11,027 bases of DNA from the UHGV virus genome UHGV-0176277; one strand, written 5' to 3'. A model generated the notes under the pieces. The model searched no databases. It was not told where the DNA came from and was given only the letters and a program-made list of their open reading frames with translations. Position 1 is the stretch's first letter, and each line of letters opens with the position of its first letter. Below are positions 777 to 10,673 of the stretch, one piece after another. The position numbers and the translations under genes are program-made. This stretch comes from a virus.

Positions 777-2213
777 TCAGAATCCTCCTTTCTTCTTGGA
801 CTGCGGTTCCTCGCGTTCACGTCGGCGCATTTCAGCAGACTGTTGGTCTGTGTCATAAATAGCGCCATTTGCCTGAATGCAATACACCGTACCGGTATTG
901 CCATGACGATTGAGACGAAGGATTAGTTCGGTTTCACCAGGTGGAACACTGTCACCAAAAGCGCCTTCACGATGGATCCCAACCCAATAATCGCAATCCT
1001 GTTCAATCTGCCCTGTATCTCGTGAGTCACTTGGTAATGGGCGTTTATTGGTTCGGCTTTCCAGTGCGCGGTTAAGCTGCGTCAGAAGCACAACAACGCA
1101 ATCAAGCTCTTTGGCAAGGTTCTTCAGTCCTTTGGTGATCATGCCGTAAGCAAGGTCGTTGCGATCGGCCTTCTCAGCGGTCATTAGTGTCAGGTAATCG
1201 ACCAGAATCATGCCAACACATCCTTTTTCTCGCTTGATTCGACGGCTTTCGCTGACGATTTGAGCCAGAGATAATCCCGGCGTGTCGTCGATGTAAAGCA
1301 GGTCGATTTCACTCAAGCGATTGGCTGTTTCGATCGCCCTGTTGAAGTCACCATCGTAATCACCCTGATAGCCGTCATCAGCGTCATTTGTCGCCGGAAG
1401 GTAAAAAATATTCGGGTTAACACCAGACTTCTGCCCTACCAGTTTTTCCAGTATCTGGTCACCTGGCATTTCAAGGCTGAACATAAGAGCGGGCTTTTTC
1501 TCATGCACTGCGCAGTTGATTGCCATCTGGCTGTATAGCGTCGTTTTCCCCATCTTAGGGCGAGCACCAATGACAAACAGAGAGCCTTTCACCAGACCTT
1601 TCGGTGACAGCATCCTGTCCAGCGATGGGATCCCTGTGCTCATTCCTCGTTGTTCGCCTGATGGGTCAAATCGCTTCTCAAGGTCGCTAACCCAGTCTTC
1701 CATGACCTCGCCAAATGAGCGAAGGCCGCGACGCGATCCGGTTTTTGCATGGTCTGTCAGTTGCGTGAAAATCGCCTGAATAGCTTCGTACTTCTGCGTT
1801 GCAGTCATTCCGTTGCGGGAATAGAGCAATTCCGTCGCTTCAGTCATGCGGTTGATGGCGTAGCGTTCCATTGCGGTTTCGCGAACCTGCATTGCATAGG
1901 CAACGATGTTTGCGGCGCTCGGCGTGTTCTTTGCGATCTCAGAGATATAAGCAAAACCGCCAACAGACGCCGTTAACGATTTACGCTCCAGTTCATCGAA
2001 AAGCGTCAGGCCATCTACTGGCTTTTGCTCCCGGTGCATTCTGGTTATTTCTTCGAAAAGGATTTTGTGTGGTCGGCTGTAAAATGAATCAGGCTTCAGC
2101 ATCGCCAGAACTTTCTGGACGCGCTCACTGCTGTCATCATCCAGAAGCAATCCACCAATCACCGCCTGCTCTGCCTCGATGCTATGTGGCGGCGCATAAA
2201 AATTATCGGTCAT
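777..2213 (-). CDS. Replicative DNA helicase, DnaB family (phage P22 gp12-like)
   Basis: N-terminus MTDNFYAPPHSIEAEQAVIGGLLLD matches the DnaB N-terminal signature; Walker A GARPKMGKTT; start ATG at 2213 with GAGGGTGA SD, overlapping the upstream O-like gene end (2203). The track's longer ORF (to 2267) has no support for the extra 18 codons. Confidence 0.9.
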   Translation of the reverse strand: MTDNFYAPPHSIEAEQAVIGGLLLDDDSSERVQKVLAMLKPDSFYSRPHKILFEEITRMHREQKPVDGLTLFDELERKSLTASVGGFAYISEIAKNTPSAANIVAYAMQVRETAMERYAINRMTEATELLYSRNGMTATQKYEAIQAIFTQLTDHAKTGSRRGLRSFGEVMEDWVSDLEKRFDPSGEQRGMSTGIPSLDRMLSPKGLVKGSLFVIGARPKMGKTTLYSQMAINCAVHEKKPALMFSLEMPGDQILEKLVGQKSGVNPNIFYLPATNDADDGYQGDYDGDFNRAIETANRLSEIDLLYIDDTPGLSLAQIVSESRRIKREKGCVGMILVDYLTLMTAEKADRNDLAYGMITKGLKNLAKELDCVVVLLTQLNRALESRTNKRPLPSDSRDTGQIEQDCDYWVGIHREGAFGDSVPPGETELILRLNRHGNTGTVYCIQANGAIYDTDQQSAEMRRREREEPQSKKKGGF

Positions 2214-3093
2214 CGTGTTCACCCTCACGAACTTTAAGGTAGGTATTGTCGTTAAGCAGGAAATCAAATCCCTTTTTGTGCCAGACGGTTCCGCGTTGAT
2301 GGTTTGGGCGTTCTTCGAACATCCATCGGCAATTTTCGCCTACGTAGCTCAAATAATTTCTCCAGTCCTGCATCGTGAAACCATGCCCGTCAAGCTGGCG
2401 GGTTATCACTCCGGCTTTGCGCCAGAACGTTCGGATCTGGTTTTTACGCTTGTCATTCAGTGCGCGGATTCTTGGCGCTTCAGGAAGGATTTCGTGGTAA
2501 GCATCGACAACATCCTGACAGCTAACGGAAGGTTTTTTCTTGTCAGACTTTTTGTCTGCTGTGGCACTCTCTAATACGTCAGTATTAGAGATATTATTTA
2601 TATTATTGTTTATGGACAACCGTTGGACAACCGTTGGACAATCTCCGCTGAGAGCCGCGCCATCACTGGTGTTTGCGTTGGACAACCGTTGGACAACCGT
2701 TGGACAATTTTTTGCCTGAAAATCGTCATATTTAACGATTGTAAACAGGCTAAATTTCTTCCCCATCGAGCAAATATTAAGCATCCCTTTCGACTCAAAA
2801 GTCCGTAATAAGCTCCGAACTTTGTTGTCGGGGATGAATGTTTCTCTGACCAGCGACGGGCGTCCAGTTATCATCTGACCGCGATCAACAGTTATCGGAC
2901 CGATATCCGTATTGACGACAGTAGATTCGTGATTAGCCTTGAGGATTAAGTGAAGCCAAAGATGTACTGCCTGAGAGTCCTTATAGAGCCTGCTGTCCAT
3001 AAACTGGCGGTGTATAGAGACATACCCCATACTGGATGCCTCCTGATGTTGTACAGGGTTATGCCTGTAATCAGCTAACTTAACGACGCCCAT
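2203..3093 (-). CDS. Replication initiation protein (lambda O / P22 gp18 functional analogue) with the origin embedded in its coding sequence
   Basis: Lies between cII and the helicase; coding region contains phased direct repeats that translate as repeated CPTVVQRLS; ATG at 3093 has AGGAG 6 nt upstream; an alternative start at 3030 (MGYVSIH...) has AGGAGG 8 nt upstream, so the true N-terminus is uncertain. Confidence 0.7.
   Translation of the reverse strand: MGVVKLADYRHNPVQHQEASSMGYVSIHRQFMDSRLYKDSQAVHLWLHLILKANHESTVVNTDIGPITVDRGQMITGRPSLVRETFIPDNKVRSLLRTFESKGMLNICSMGKKFSLFTIVKYDDFQAKNCPTVVQRLSNANTSDGAALSGDCPTVVQRLSINNNINNISNTDVLESATADKKSDKKKPSVSCQDVVDAYHEILPEAPRIRALNDKRKNQIRTFWRKAGVITRQLDGHGFTMQDWRNYLSYVGENCRWMFEERPNHQRGTVWHKKGFDFLLNDNTYLKVREGEHDDR
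2614..2707. repeat. Origin iterons: six copies of an 11-bp direct repeat (GGACAACCGTT) in two triplets, flanked by an AT-rich tract
   Basis: GGACAA begins at 2614, 2625, 2636 and at 2680, 2691, 2702; all six are in 11-bp register with a 44-bp GC-rich spacer; AT-rich 2582-2612 (tattagagatattatttatattattgtttat) lies on the downstream side of the O-like reading frame, as in ori-lambda. Confidence 0.75.
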
Positions 3094-3976: not shown

Positions 3977-4693
3977 ATGGAAAATAAAAAATCACTGACG
4001 ACAGAACAGCTCGAAGACGCTAAGCGGCTTAAGGCTTTGTATGAGTCAAAAAAGAAAGAATTGGGAATAACCCAATACTCAATCGCTGATGAACTGGGTA
4101 TCACCCAAGGAGCGGTAGGGCATTATCTTAATGGCAGAAACGCGCTAAACGTTGAGGTTGCATCTGGTTTTGCACGGCTGTTGCAAGTCTCAATTGCTGA
4201 TTTTAGCCAGTCAATTGCTGCCAAGGTTGCAGAACAGGCAGAAAGCCTTAAGAGCGATGCCAACGTAAGGTATGCAGGGGAATACAGAGCAGGAAAGAGG
4301 TATCCGGTGTTAAGCAGTATCCAGGCTGGCTCGTGGTGTGAAGCATGCGAACCATACACCATTAAAGACATAGATGTTTGGCTTGAGTCTGACGCGCATA
4401 TTCAAGGTAATGCGTTCTGGCTTAAAGTGGAAGGTGATTCAATGACGGCACCGGTTGGGTTAAGCATTCCAGAGGGGACATTCGTTCTTTTCGATACCGG
4501 AAGGGAGGCGATCAACGGCAGCTTGGTCATAGCAAAACTTTCTGACTCTAACGAAGCAACATTCAAGAAGCTGATAATCGACGGCGGAAATAAATACCTC
4601 AAGGGACTTAATCCTGCATGGCCTCTCGTGCCAATCAATGGAAACTGCAAGATTATAGGCGTTGCAATTGAGACAAAACTAAGGCTGGTTTGA
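3977..4693 (+). CDS. cI: CI repressor (HTH N-terminal domain plus S24/LexA-type autocleaving C-terminal domain)
   Basis: N-terminus ...LTTEQLEDAKRLKALYESKKKELGITQYSIADELGITQGAVGHYLNGRNALN parallels lambda CI; Ala-Gly cleavage site in SIQAGSW; catalytic Ser in EGDSMTAP and Lys in TFKKLI. Confidence 0.95.
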   Translation: MENKKSLTTEQLEDAKRLKALYESKKKELGITQYSIADELGITQGAVGHYLNGRNALNVEVASGFARLLQVSIADFSQSIAAKVAEQAESLKSDANVRYAGEYRAGKRYPVLSSIQAGSWCEACEPYTIKDIDVWLESDAHIQGNAFWLKVEGDSMTAPVGLSIPEGTFVLFDTGREAINGSLVIAKLSDSNEATFKKLIIDGGNKYLKGLNPAWPLVPINGNCKIIGVAIETKLRLV

Positions 4694-6661: not shown

Positions 6662-6686
6662 GCCCTCCAGTGTGAGGGCTTTTTTA
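6662..6686 (+). terminator. Rho-independent terminator within the PL operon (tL-like), upstream of cIII
   Basis: GCCCTC-CAGTGT-GAGGGC hairpin (6662-6679) followed by TTTTTT (6680-6685). Confidence 0.7.
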
Positions 6687-6751
6687 TATGCATACCAATA
6701 ACGCTTCACGAGAGGCATTTTCGTTATGCAATCAAACAGAAGGAGCATCCT

Positions 6752-6922
6752 ATGCAACAGTTCGCTATTGCAGGGGCGGCATCGGTTCGCCCTTTCAACC
6801 CGATTTTATCGGTACAGCATTCACGAAAAAACATTTTAACCGGAGCAGACTTTAAACAACCAAGAATGAAAAGCTTGCTCGAAAAGCTTTGGGATATTTT
6901 GAAACAACAAGGCCGTCCATGA
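6752..6922 (+). CDS. cIII: CIII-like protein (56 aa; FtsH/HflB protease inhibitor that stabilises CII)
   Basis: MQQFAIAGAA... N-terminus and ...SLLEKLWDILKQQGRP parallel lambda CIII (MQYAIAGW...LRDGWKRLIDILNQPGVP as I recall it); AGGAG SD 6 nt upstream of ATG 6752. Confidence 0.65.
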   Translation: MQQFAIAGAASVRPFNPILSVQHSRKNILTGADFKQPRMKSLLEKLWDILKQQGRP

Positions 6923-7077
6923 GTTTTACGGATAACTGGTCAGACGAAGAATTCATTCGTCAGATGAAAGAATTAATCGGTAACGAAGGAGATATTCATG
7001 TCACTTGCAACTACAGTGAAGGAGAGCAAGTTACAGAGACGCATGTACACGCAGAAAGCTCTCTGGTATCGCCATAA
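6919..7077 (+). CDS. Hypothetical small acidic protein (52 aa) at the kil-equivalent position
   Basis: ATG at 6919 overlaps the cIII-like stop (ATGA); translation MSFTDNWSDEEFIRQMKELIGNEGDIHVTCNYSEGEQ...; no similarity to lambda Kil that I can see. Confidence 0.45.
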   Translation: MSFTDNWSDEEFIRQMKELIGNEGDIHVTCNYSEGEQVTETHVHAESSLVSP

Positions 7078-7176
7078 TGGCGACCGCGAAGGAATGCGGG
7101 TATGCCTTAATTTGTCCCGAGTCGAAGTATTAAATCAGCGTTATTTTCTTGGGCCATGTCCATTCTGAGGTGATTT

Positions 7177-7884
7177 ATGGATTTGAATAAATTAGATGAG
7201 CCATTCTGCCCTGAAGATATCGAATGGCGAATACAGCAAAGCGGTAAAACACGCGATGGCAAGGTGTGGGCTATGGTGCTGGCTTATGTCACGAACCGGG
7301 CAATCATGAGACGCCTGGACGATGTTTGCGGCAAAGCAGGATGGCGCAATGAATACCGCGATATTCCCAACAACGGAGGCGTTGAATGCGGCATATCAAT
7401 CAGGATTGATTCCGAATGGGTAACCAAATGGGATGCCGCTGAAAACACGCAGGTAGAAGCCGTCAAAGGCGGTCGTTCCGGTGCAATGAAGCGCGCTGCC
7501 GTTCAGTGGGGAATCGGTCGGTATCTGTATAACCTTGAGGAAGGTTTCGCACAAACATCTCTCGATAAAAAGCAGGGATGGCACAGGGCAAAACTCAAGG
7601 ATGGAACAGGATTTTACTGGCTCCCTCCATCGCTGCCGGGATGGGCAATACCAGCATCAGATAACAAACCATCACCAGAAAATACCAACCAGAAATCTCC
7701 ATCGGTTGACTGCGAACAAATCCTGAAAGACTTCAGCGATTATGCGTCAACAGAAACTGACAAGAAAAAACTCATCGAGCGTTATCAGCGTGACTGGCAA
7801 TTAATGGCTGGCAACGAGGAGGCGCAGGCTAAATGCGTTCAGGTAATGAACATCAGAGTTAACGAACTAAAACAGGCGGCATAA
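7177..7884 (+). CDS. Single-strand annealing protein, Rad52/22 superfamily (phage recombinase)
   Basis: Central block GKAGWRNEYRDIP...GGVECGISIRID...GAMKRAAVQWGIGRYLYNL resembles the Rad52-family annealing-domain signature; GAGGTGA SD; immediately followed by ssb. Confidence 0.75.
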   Translation: MDLNKLDEPFCPEDIEWRIQQSGKTRDGKVWAMVLAYVTNRAIMRRLDDVCGKAGWRNEYRDIPNNGGVECGISIRIDSEWVTKWDAAENTQVEAVKGGRSGAMKRAAVQWGIGRYLYNLEEGFAQTSLDKKQGWHRAKLKDGTGFYWLPPSLPGWAIPASDNKPSPENTNQKSPSVDCEQILKDFSDYASTETDKKKLIERYQRDWQLMAGNEEAQAKCVQVMNIRVNELKQAA

Positions 7885-8358
7885 ATGGGAAGTAGAGGCG
7901 TAAATAAGGTGATCATTATTGGTCGCCTTGGGCATGATCCAGAAATCAGATATTCACCATCAGGAACGGCATTTGCAAACCTTACAGTTGCTACGTCAGA
8001 ACAATGGCGTGATAAGCAAACTGGAGAGCAAAAGGAGCAGACGGAGTGGCACCGTGTGGTAATGAGCGGGAAACTGGCAGAAATTGCCAGCGAATATCTG
8101 CGAAAAGGCTCTGAGGTTTATCTTGAAGGCAAATTACGGACAAGAAAATGGCAGGATCAAAGCGGACAGGATAGGTTCACTACCGAAGTCATCGTGGGCG
8201 TTGGTGGAACCATGCAAATGCTTGGTGGCAAGCAAGGAGGCAATGAACAGTCTTCACCTCAGCGAAATAACGGTCAGCAACAAAGACAGCAGCCTCAGCA
8301 GCAGGGAAATCACAGCGAACCACCTATGAACTTCGACGATTCGGATATTCCGTTCTAG
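7885..8358 (+). CDS. ssb: Single-stranded DNA-binding protein (phage-encoded SSB)
   Basis: [59 protein letters not shown]... is near-colinear with E. coli SSB; Gly/Gln-rich linker and acidic tail DDSDIPF. Confidence 0.95.
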
Positions 8359-8367
8359 GAGCTGAAT

Positions 8368-8847
8368 ATGAAAATCTGCTCAAGATGCCATCAACAGAAG
8401 GAAGAAAGGGACTTTCAAATCAGAAGAGCATCCAGAGATGGATTAACTGCCGCTTGCCGTGCTTGCCTGGCTGAATACGACAAAGAACGCGCTGGATTGC
8501 CACATCGAGTATCAGCAAGGAGAGAATATCAATCATCGGAACGCGGCAGAGAACGGTGTAACGCAGCCAAAAAGCGGTTCATTCAGAGCAACCCATGGAA
8601 AAGAAAAGCCCACATCATTGTGGGTAATTTTTTGCGCGACGGTAAGCTAATCCGACCACCACAATGTGAGTGCTGCGGATCAGAATGTAAACCACAGGCG
8701 CACCACTGCGACTACAGTAAACCAACCGATGTGATGTGGCTCTGCAAGTCATGTCATGTCGAGTGGCACAAACATAACAAACCTATCTACCCAGATGAGG
8801 AACCAGTAACTCTCCCCTTCCCTCGTCACGCTATTCACGCAATTTAA
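8368..8847 (+). CDS. Cysteine-rich zinc-binding protein with an HNH-like motif (putative HNH nuclease or zinc-ribbon protein)
   Basis: N-terminal CSRCH...CRAC pair; C-terminal CECCGSEC...AHHCDY...WLCKSCHVEWHKH resembles the CxxC...HH...CxxCH arrangement of HNH nucleases but lacks a clear Asn; AGGAG SD 6 nt upstream. Confidence 0.5.
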   Translation: MKICSRCHQQKEERDFQIRRASRDGLTAACRACLAEYDKERAGLPHRVSARREYQSSERGRERCNAAKKRFIQSNPWKRKAHIIVGNFLRDGKLIRPPQCECCGSECKPQAHHCDYSKPTDVMWLCKSCHVEWHKHNKPIYPDEEPVTLPFPRHAIHAI

Positions 8848-8860
8848 TCAGGAGAAAATC

Positions 8861-9157
8861 ATGCCAGCGCCTCTGTATGGTGCGGATGACCCGCGCCGCT
8901 GTTCCGGCAATTCCGTATCGGAGGTGCTGGATAAATTCAGAAAAAACTACGACCTGATAATGTCTCTACCGCAGGAAACGAAAGAGGAAAAGGAATTTCG
9001 CCACTGTATATGGCTTGCAGAGAAAGAAGAACGCGAGCGAATTTACCAGACATCAATCCGACCATTCCGCAAAGCCACATATACCCACTTCCCTGAATAT
9101 ATCGACCCGCGCCTGCGTAATTACCGCTCACGCTATTGCGCTATCAGTAATGACTGA
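8861..9157 (+). CDS. Hypothetical protein (98 aa)
   Basis: AGGAG SD 6 nt upstream of the ATG; ORF fills the gap between flanking genes; no recognisable motif. Confidence 0.55.
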   Translation: MPAPLYGADDPRRCSGNSVSEVLDKFRKNYDLIMSLPQETKEEKEFRHCIWLAEKEERERIYQTSIRPFRKATYTHFPEYIDPRLRNYRSRYCAISND

Positions 9158-9458: not shown

Positions 9459-9622
9459 GAGGACTTGCATACAATCCCGGCATTCTTCCGGCAGAAATGA
9501 TTATTCGCCAACGCGTAAAGCCAATGCCATCGAGAGAGGAATTACTTAAGAGAAATTCTTTTCCATCAGTGAATGAAAACAAATATCTGAATGCGATGTG
9601 GCGCAAAGGAGGCAGCCAGTGA
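9455..9622 (+). CDS. Small hypothetical protein (55 aa), absent from the supplied ORF track
   Basis: ATG at 9455 overlaps the upstream stop (ATGA) with GGAGAG SD 6 nt upstream; its TGA stop overlaps the next gene's GTG start (GTGA); translation [55 protein letters not shown]. Confidence 0.45.
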
Positions 9623-10263
9623 CTAACCGTTTTTACATGATGTGCTCGCGTGAAACTGTGGGCAATAACGCTTCATTCCATTGCCATAACGGCAATGGTT
9701 ACAGTTCTGATATCGATCGCGCTCATGTTTACACGCTGGAAGAAGCCCAAAAAGCCTGGAATTGTGGGCGAGATATCGATCAGCCTGTTTGCGCTGATAG
9801 CGTGGATGCAATGGCAGTGTGGCACGTTGATTGCCAGTACATCCCTACAGAAAGCCTGATTGAGTCAGATTGCACTGCGTATGTGGCCTACAAAAAAGGT
9901 AGCTGGAACGGCAACGATGTTTACTGGCTTCAACACGGTGGATTGCCAACAGATGACTTCAGTAAAGCGACCATCTTTAGCGTCGCCAACAAAAACGAAC
10001 CAGGAATAGTTTGGTTGCCATTTTCCATTGCTGATGCAGCAAAGCGCAGGACGTTCAATATCAATAACTTTAACCGCAGAACAATGGTTCAGGGCGCAGG
10101 TTTGGTCATGCCTGACTGGTTGAAAGAGCAGAACAGAAGAAAGAAGTCGCGAAGCGGGAAGGTGCGTTGGAATTGTCCGCATTGCGGAAAAATCTCCTGG
10201 CAGTACAGCCCATATGATTTTGAAGGCTGTAGTGATTACAACTGTGAAGGATGGCGAGAATGA
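9619..10263 (+). CDS. Hypothetical protein with C-terminal zinc-ribbon motif (about 214 aa)
   Basis: GTG at 9619 preceded by AGGAGG 6 nt upstream (preferred over the track's 9598); C-terminus [29 protein letters not shown] has CxxC...C..C spacing; several additional conserved-looking Cys/His. Confidence 0.6.
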
Positions 10264-10673
10264 CAATTGACTATCAGGCACTGCGTGATGCGGCAGAAGC
10301 AATAAAAATAGCAGCCACACCACAAAAATTGCTGGCATTTCGTATGAAGGTCACACCTCAGGTTGTGCTGGCACTACTGGATGAACGGGAAAGGAACCAG
10401 CAATACATCAAATCCCGCGACCAGGAGAACGAGGAAATTGCGCTAACGGTAGGGAAGCTGCGCGTTGAGCTTGAAGCAGAAAAACAGCGGGCAAAAGTTC
10501 TATTTATGGAAAATGCTCGGCTTAAGTCAGGCATAGCCGGTCTGATACACCTCGGTATTCGATATGCAGATGTTGAGGTCATGAAAATTGCTGGAGATGC
10601 CCAGCTTTCTACCCCATGCACTGACAGCATCATAAACAGCATTGCAACAGGCATTCGCATCAAAGGAGAGTGA
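10260..10673 (+). CDS. Hypothetical early-region protein, possibly Ead/Ea22-like (137 aa)
   Basis: ATG at 10260 overlaps the upstream stop (ATGA); [19 protein letters not shown]... N-terminus and central heptad-like charged region (coiled coil) resemble prophage Ea22-like proteins as I recall them. Confidence 0.5.
   Translation: MTIDYQALRDAAEAIKIAATPQKLLAFRMKVTPQVVLALLDERERNQQYIKSRDQENEEIALTVGKLRVELEAEKQRAKVLFMENARLKSGIAGLIHLGIRYADVEVMKIAGDAQLSTPCTDSIINSIATGIRIKGE

Follow-up and report, generated by a model that had tools for sequence, protein, structure and literature searches.

A P22/Sf6-type recombination module with a predicted Rad52-fold annealing protein, a bacterial-type SSB and an HNH gene lodged at the 3' end of ssb in the virus genome UHGV-0176277

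Positions 7177 to 8358 of a stretch of 11,027 nucleotides from the virus genome UHGV-0176277 (the window, i.e. the whole stretch that was analysed) carry two adjacent genes on the plus strand, the first coding for a single-strand annealing protein (SSAP) of 235 residues (7177-7884) and the second for an SSB (binding protein for single-stranded DNA) of 157 residues (7885-8358). These genes are best explained, with a probability of about three in four, as the core of a recombination (Rec) module of the P22/Sf6 type transcribed from pL, in which host RecBCD modified by the Abc2 protein would carry out resection and the HNH gene behind ssb would be an optional mobile element. The module would comprise two small open reading frames (ORFs) at the position of arf, an SSAP combining a Rad52 fold with the C-terminal domain of P22 Erf, the SSB, a free-standing HNH gene and Abc2. 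An earlier reading of this DNA from its letters alone (the sequence-only reading) had delimited both genes correctly, had placed them in the recombination slot of the early-left operon and had called their products a Rad52-family protein and, directly behind it, a full-length SSB with an acidic tip, all of which was borne out. It took them for a bare pair replacing the lambda Red genes. This picture gives way to that of a P22-type (Erf/Abc-like) system, since abc2 lies two genes downstream of ssb. The features of the module are listed below with their coordinates in the window (E, expectation value).

6919..7077, plus strand: small ORF of 52 residues, homologue of Sf6 gp30 / HK97 gp42.1, at the position of P22 arf (PHROG 2123, E 6e-41)
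6998..7168, plus strand: small ORF of 56 residues, homologue of Sf6 gp29 / HK97 gp42 (PHROG 1723, E 9e-36)
7177..7884, plus strand: SSAP, 235 residues (PF04098, E 8e-26; AlphaFold model)
7645..7884, plus strand: C-terminal domain of the SSAP (residues 157-235), a homologue of the C-terminal domain of P22 Erf, candidate partner-interaction domain
7885..8358, plus strand: bacterial-type SSB, 157 residues, with oligonucleotide-binding (OB) fold, Q-rich linker and acidic tip DDSDIPF (PF00436, E 1.7e-38; TIGR00621)
8340..8801, plus strand: HNH cassette as compared with HNH-less alleles, i.e. re-coded last ssb codons (SDIPF and stop), ribosome-binding site and the greater part of the HNH ORF
8368..8847, plus strand: predicted HNH-type endonuclease, 159 residues, with N-terminal CxxC...CxxC zinc ribbon, helical middle and C-terminal beta-beta-alpha-metal motif
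8803..8847, plus strand: last 14 HNH codons and stop (PVTLPFPRHAIHAI, then stop); the same DNA is the ssb 3' end (tip extension) in HNH-less relatives
8861..9157, plus strand: Abc2 anti-RecBCD protein, 98 residues (PF11043, E 3.7e-62)

The SSAP matches the Pfam family PF04098 (Rad52_Rad22) at 91.2 bits (cutoff 20.3; E 8.2e-26) over profile positions 7-153 of 153, and no match to ERF (PF04404) or RecT (PF03837) appeared in the Pfam profile search at E <= 0.01. Its homologues form 5578 clusters; PF04098 is carried by all 120 clusters listed. The protein consists of a Rad52-fold domain (residues ~1-136), a low-complexity linker and a three-helix C-terminal domain (residues ~179-235). Its AlphaFold model was built from 24 homologues and has a mean confidence score (pLDDT) of 79. 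When the model was compared with the PDB by Foldseek, each of the top 16 matches was either human RAD52 or Mgm101 of yeast (probability 0.98-1.00, E ~1e-3, target-normalised TM-score 0.27-0.48), the next ones being unrelated folds with E > 0.3. Searches of the PDB by sequence alone, whether started from the SSAP and HNH proteins or from profiles of them, yielded no meaningful match, and the fold comparison was needed. Profile and model together point to a Rad52-fold annealing protein, whose ring formation, binding of single-stranded DNA (ssDNA) and annealing are predictions only. The same Pfam family and predicted fold are found in Sak of the lactococcal phage ul36, in RAD52 and in Mgm101, from which the SSAP differs by its Erf-type C-terminal domain and its enterobacterial Abc2 context.

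This C-terminal domain is 63% identical to residues 134-205 of P22 Erf (BLASTP, E 2e-30), whereas the N-terminal domains of the two proteins show no similarity in the same comparison. The label 'Erf-like' that PHROG and RefSeq give to the SSAP is owed to the shared C-terminal domain, and concerns that domain only. The domain is also present on the Erf-type SSAPs of four related loci (L085, L087, L088 and L089), and is a candidate for a shuffled domain of putative partner-interaction function. A swap of the Erf C-terminal domain has already been noted for phage epsilon34 (PMC2629481).

The SSB is of the bacterial type (131 bits, E 1.7e-38 against PF00436; 181.8 bits against TIGR00621 ssb, cutoff 53.95) and ends, after its Q-rich linker, in the free acidic tip DDSDIPF followed by the stop codon. 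Compared with an E. coli SSB sequence, it is 61% identical with essentially the same tip, and W40, W54, H55 and W88 are kept; residue 61 (8065-8067) is Ser where E. coli SSB has F60, an aromatic residue contacting ssDNA. Further downstream, Abc2 matches PF11043 at 207 bits (E 3.7e-62) and is 93% identical to P22 Abc2, Pro68 (the proline of SIRPF) being conserved. On this homology, Abc2 would be the functional counterpart of Gam in the module. No homologue of Exo (YqaJ), Beta or Gam was found among the ORFs between 5560 and 10673 by Pfam and PHROG scans. The claim that Exo and Gam are missing therefore stands, and only the two small overlapping ORFs lie between cIII and the SSAP gene, but the counterpart of Gam at 8861-9157 had been overlooked.

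The arrangement was followed through 83 loci: the window, Sf6, mEp235 and 80 IMG/VR loci with an SSAP of 98% identity or more. All 83 keep the order SSAP-SSB-Abc2. In the window the module genes are tightly packed, with gaps of 0 to 13 nucleotides: the TAA stop codon of the SSAP gene directly abuts the ATG of ssb, 9 nucleotides separate ssb from the HNH gene and 13 nucleotides the HNH gene from abc2. These observations bear on another view of the SSB, namely that it serves mainly in phage replication or ssDNA protection, that mosaicism made it a neighbour of the SSAP and that the SSAP uses the host SSB as do P22 Erf and lambda Beta. The P22 and lambda Rec modules are indeed devoid of an SSB, as are 177 of 246 Enterobacteriales Rec modules (PMC12315714), and the identity of the phage SSB to the host protein, tip included, would fit as well. 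Such a role is nevertheless decidedly improbable, given that ssb stands between the SSAP gene and abc2 in every locus with abutting stop and start codons, that cognate SSBs stimulate annealing proteins in the systems tested, and that the replication genes belong to another operon (777-3093, minus strand).

The steps proposed for the P22/Sf6-type module are all drawn from homology. Abc2 would bind RecC of the host RecBCD, stop the response to Chi and turn the enzyme into a resection engine, so that no phage exonuclease would be needed. The resulting 3' single strand would be coated by the phage SSB, and SSAP rings, recruited via their C-terminal domain and the SSB tip, would anneal complementary strands. 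Injected DNA, provided that it has the terminal redundancy seen in headful packagers of the P22 kind, would be circularised in this manner and would feed recombination-dependent replication. Within this scheme the HNH gene would be an optional mobile element of homing type, seated in the 3' end of ssb, and not an equivalent of Exo. On RecC, P22 Abc2 binds beside the domains that recognise Chi (PMC9836394). Phages encoding Abc2 are typically without exonuclease, and it was proposed that RecBCD is co-opted to resect and to load Erf instead of RecA (PMC9836394, PMC5928155). Cognate SSBs and their C-terminal tails stimulate phage annealing proteins such as HK620 Sak4 and RecT-type proteins, and this cooperation is already established in recombineering for such other pairs (PMC5928155, PMC12054835). 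Rec modules are present in nearly all headful packagers (PMC12315714). By analogy with P22, host RecBCD under the control of Abc2, rather than the HNH protein, is probably the nuclease of the module. Because Abc2 is near-identical to that of P22 while the SSAP shares only its C-terminal domain with Erf, this domain is the best candidate, as judged by sequence, for the element coupling the SSAP to Abc2-RecBCD. Chi sites are absent from the window, where 0.29 would be expected by chance, hence their absence is uninformative.

Several known systems frame this module. The closest is the block of Sf6 genes 28-27-26-25, with the same four genes in the same order and 98.3% nucleotide identity over 7177-9157; its gp26 is 100% identical to the HNH protein. 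The E. coli phages IME10, N7 and CurroJimenez_Bas106 carry the same block. Upstream, Sf6 differs by an extra gene 33 of ~1 kb and by different cIII and kil alleles. The P22 arf-erf-abc1-abc2 genes share with the module the operon position, an Abc2 at 93% identity, the SSAP C-terminal domain and probably, by analogy, the dependence on Abc2-modified RecBCD rather than on a phage exonuclease. They differ in that P22 Erf belongs to ERF (PF04404) and the SSAP to Rad52_Rad22 (PF04098), in that a bacterial-type SSB takes the place of Abc1, and in that the module has no clear Arf homologue. HK620 displays the same order of annealing protein, cognate SSB and Abc2. Its SSB, including the last six residues, stimulates annealing and recombineering, while Abc2 is without effect on oligonucleotide recombineering (PMC5928155). 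However, its annealing protein Sak4 is an ATP-dependent protein with a RecA core and not a Rad52 fold, and its SSB is non-canonical, ending in NDYPPF. The lambda Red system occupies the same genomic slot and likewise joins an annealing protein of the Rad52 superfamily to the neutralisation of RecBCD. In contrast, the present module is without Exo or Gam, would modify RecBCD rather than block it and adds a phage SSB.

The arrangement is not new: it equals Sf6 gp28-gp25, was described in 2008 (PMC2629481) and catalogued in 2025 (PMC12315714). The 2008 description concerns epsilon34, with a gene set of Abc2, a nuclease, an SSB and an 'Erf' (PMC2629481). The 2025 survey of 325 lambdoid phages catalogued Rec modules by function and distinguishes an 'ES18' type (anti-RecBCD, SSB, nuclease and annealing protein; 25 phages) from an 'HK75' type with the same set except for the nuclease (27 phages) (PMC12315714). 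Among 5426 finished E. coli genomes, the module is complete in ~97 and partial in ~1100. It is a common module, already known from comparative genomics.

The gene between ssb and abc2 requires a separate discussion, since the sequence-only reading had seen in this Cys-rich product (8368-8847) a possible nuclease partner of the SSAP. The ORF is real and its 159-residue product is predicted to be of the HNH type, yet it makes a poor partner: it is absent from 59 of the 83 loci and has an intron-encoded relative. No Pfam or NCBIfam model matches the protein. Among 32 homologues, C100, C103, H112, H113, H130 and H134 are invariant and conservation reaches 90% or more at C126 and C129, with the acidic D121 at the Asn position of the HNH motif. 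The AlphaFold model has a pLDDT of 91.5, residues 148-159 being disordered (pLDDT < 50). From motif and fold the protein is predicted to be an HNH-type endonuclease.

Its distribution is that of a mobile gene. Relatives occur in 532 phage records in varied, unrelated contexts. They include KsaII, encoded in the polA group I intron of Staphylococcus phage K (35% identity over 84% of the HNH length, E 1e-20). Of the 83 loci, 41 have nothing in the ssb-abc2 slot, 22 have the HNH gene there, 18 a gene for a DnaQ-like exonuclease and 2 both, so that the HNH gene is present in 24. This presence/absence polymorphism concerns one precise site with the same borders in otherwise near-identical genomes. 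At this site, L034, L035 and phage Huey carry another HNH allele, with an identity of only 47%. Neither target-site duplication nor direct or terminal inverted repeats, as would mark transposon-like borders, were found around the gene. The pattern, read from sequence comparison, is more likely that of a free-standing homing endonuclease than that of a substitute for Exo. KsaII and the free-standing HNH homing endonucleases of phages resemble it by sequence and by presence/absence at a precise site. The difference with KsaII, which resides in an intron, is that the HNH gene is free-standing, lies in frame in the 3' end of ssb and takes over the last 14 ssb codons.

An alternative account keeps the SSAP and SSB as a self-contained pair and makes of the HNH protein a dedicated nuclease that, in place of lambda Exo, would nick or cut DNA and so generate the annealing substrate. 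The HNH-type motif and predicted fold and the tight packing of the gene in the operon are compatible with it. In prophages of Cronobacter, Hafnia and Pantoea, too, homologues come after ssb, in Erf- or Sak4-based modules, and other relatives of the module hold a different nuclease, the DnaQ-like protein (PF16473), in the same slot. The HNH C-terminus moreover carries the 14-residue peptide that otherwise ends the SSB and could dock to the same partner. The 2025 survey leans towards genuine membership for such genes, the tightly packed HNH genes of Rec modules being regarded as probably genuine components (PMC12315714). Nonetheless this account is unlikely. Fifty-nine of the 83 modules do without the HNH gene, 41 of them without any nuclease gene, and Abc2, always present, offers a documented route to a nuclease. 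The HNH family is widespread in unrelated contexts, a group I intron among them, and an endonuclease alone does not make the long 3' tails required by an annealing protein.

The DnaQ-like gene was noted in the slot of 20 of the 83 loci (PF16473, E 1e-73; e.g. mEp235, L002 4402-4950). The 3'-5' polarity of this exonuclease is not what the annealing pathway needs. A relationship of the HNH protein to the DnaQ-like exonuclease of mEp235 was considered, and no similarity was found. The database proteins P0131, P0134, P0144, P0173, P0180 and P0183 are fusions of SSB and HNH or of HNH and exonuclease fragments; they presumably derive from deletions of adjacent genes in decaying prophages.

The site of the HNH gene is the 3' end of ssb itself. 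In all 59 HNH-less loci (e.g. L005, L014 and L059), the SSB has 168 or 171 residues and ends in DDDIPF followed by APVTLPFPRHAIHAI. In all 24 HNH-bearing loci, it stops directly after DIPF, the tip reading DDEIPF in L034 and L035 but DDSDIPF in most; the HNH ORF ends in EEPVTLPFPRHAIHAI, encoded by the same DNA and closed by the same stop codon as the extended ssb. The link is perfect across the 83 loci, i.e. 24 with an HNH gene and an SSB ending in DIPF, 59 with no HNH gene and an extension of 15 residues. The window aligns with HNH-less loci with no gap up to 8339 and again from 8802 onwards, 462 nucleotides (8340-8801) replacing 15 nucleotides. Among the 5426 complete E. coli genomes, the extended-tip junction is found in 297 and the HNH junction in 99.

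The same extension closes SSBs with OB domains of only 28-57% identity, in genomes of Enterobacter, Kluyvera, Pseudescherichia, Buttiauxella and Citrobacter, and it ends the SSB (72% identical) of a sixth locus labelled Chryseobacterium. These extended-tip SSBs (L083-L090) adjoin Rad52-like, Erf-type or Sak4 annealing proteins. An Abc2-like ORF lies downstream in four of the five divergent loci and in the Chryseobacterium-labelled one; the Kluyvera locus ends earlier. Over the 15 codons of the extension, the six loci differ from the common allele by 30 synonymous and 4 non-synonymous changes. By these comparisons, the extension appears to be old and under selection. It is lacking in HNH relatives elsewhere. 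Loss of an ancestral HNH gene was considered as the origin of the HNH-less alleles and rejected: since the extension is old and selected on very divergent SSBs and is missing from other HNH relatives, the event would be an insertion into ssb and not a deletion of the HNH gene. The acidic tail that had been called intact thus appears to be the derived state in this lineage. The Chryseobacterium-labelled record (L090, CACSKA010000001.1) encodes an SSAP of 78% identity, an extended SSB, a DnaQ-like exonuclease and an Abc2-like ORF; the assembly is likely contaminated or mislabelled.

Partners of SSB normally bind its tip through the free carboxylate of the terminal Phe. Should the extension be functional, it may mask this carboxylate, needed by the host partners of SSB, or it may serve as a docking peptide for a partner from the module. 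In both cases, the arrival of a homing-type HNH gene between DIPF and the extension would have unmasked the SSB tip and moved the peptide to the nuclease, a scenario that is conceivable and put forward tentatively. The peptide string was not found in any paper of the literature searched. The GenBank note on Sf6 gene 26 mentions 14 residues shared with an 'E. coli SSB'.

A stretch of the SSAP (residues 129-160, 7561-7656; GWHRAKLKDGTGFYWLPPSLPGWAIP) resembles a WW domain, with the pattern GW..DG..FYW....W..P and 21 residues between tryptophans. The PRP40 WW domain was its top PDB sequence match (E 0.07-0.1), and the isolated segment gave no WW match in Pfam. The resemblance is unproven and may be due to chance. 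A function of this stretch as receptor of the SSB extension is unlikely because the Erf-type and Sak4 SSAPs paired with extended-tip SSBs are, on sequence inspection, without a comparable segment.

Several points weigh against the P22/Sf6-type reading as a whole. The Rec proteins of Sf6 and ES18 are unstudied experimentally (PMC12315714), and the coupling of Abc2 to the annealing protein is still a hypothesis even for P22 (PMC9836394). HK620 and L084 pair Abc2 with Sak4, which does not have the Erf-type C-terminal domain; therefore this domain cannot be the sole route to Abc2-RecBCD. The enterobacterial relatives of the HNH gene always lie directly downstream of ssb, across three SSAP families (Rad52-like, Erf and Sak4), to which the opinion of the 2025 survey cited above on tightly packed HNH genes is to be added. 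A preference for the target site would explain this constant position, as would a real functional link with SSB, and the HNH protein may have a role in recombination.

The module is set in the early and immunity region of a temperate phage or prophage that is lambdoid and P22-like. NinB, a helicase of the DnaB type, a replication protein resembling O, cII and cro are encoded on the minus strand; on the plus strand, cI (3977-4693) and the gene for an N-like antiterminator precede the early-left genes. Beyond the block shared with Sf6, the window is a mosaic pieced together from segments of mEpX2, IME10, Sf6 and HK620. The features flanking the module are the following.

6752..6922, plus strand: cIII homologue of 56 residues, upstream neighbour of the module (PHROG 550 'CIII', E 1e-22; pattern MQQFAIAG...SLLEKLWDILKQQG)
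9598-10263: 221-residue protein, downstream early-left ORF (PHROG 2457, no Pfam match), in few related loci only
10251-10673: Ead/Ea22-like protein, downstream early-left ORF (PF13935)

A GC-rich, terminator-like hairpin followed by a T-run was observed at 6662-6689, just upstream of cIII. It may be the counterpart of the tL2-type terminator annotated in Sf6 and be read through by N-modified polymerase. The two small ORFs between cIII and the SSAP gene overlap by 80 nucleotides in different frames, and most of the 83 loci have both of them upstream of the SSAP gene. Both bear the PHROG label 'recombinase', with no visible support. The first (6919-7077) was considered as an Arf homologue and not retained: only a 7-residue match was found (WSDEEFI/FSDEEFI, E 0.013), with no match to the Pfam family Phage_Arf.

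Overall, the finding mainly confirms the existing annotation and adds another copy of a common module. Its remaining interest lies in a module type so far treated in comparative genomics only, and also in the extended SSB tip and the inserted HNH gene. Related pairs of SSAP and SSB improve recombineering, and the four-gene cassette with its natural variants (HNH gene, DnaQ-like exonuclease gene or neither) forms a ready-made series. This series could probe whether Abc2 hands the ssDNA produced by RecBCD to the SSAP via the shared Erf-type C-terminal domain. How the C-terminal tails of SSBs set partner specificity is a current question of recombineering, on which the extension and the inserted HNH gene bear. 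If the tentative scenario of tip unmasking is true, a selfish endonuclease would have rewired a phage recombination module in a manner not described before, and extended-tip SSBs would form a new class.

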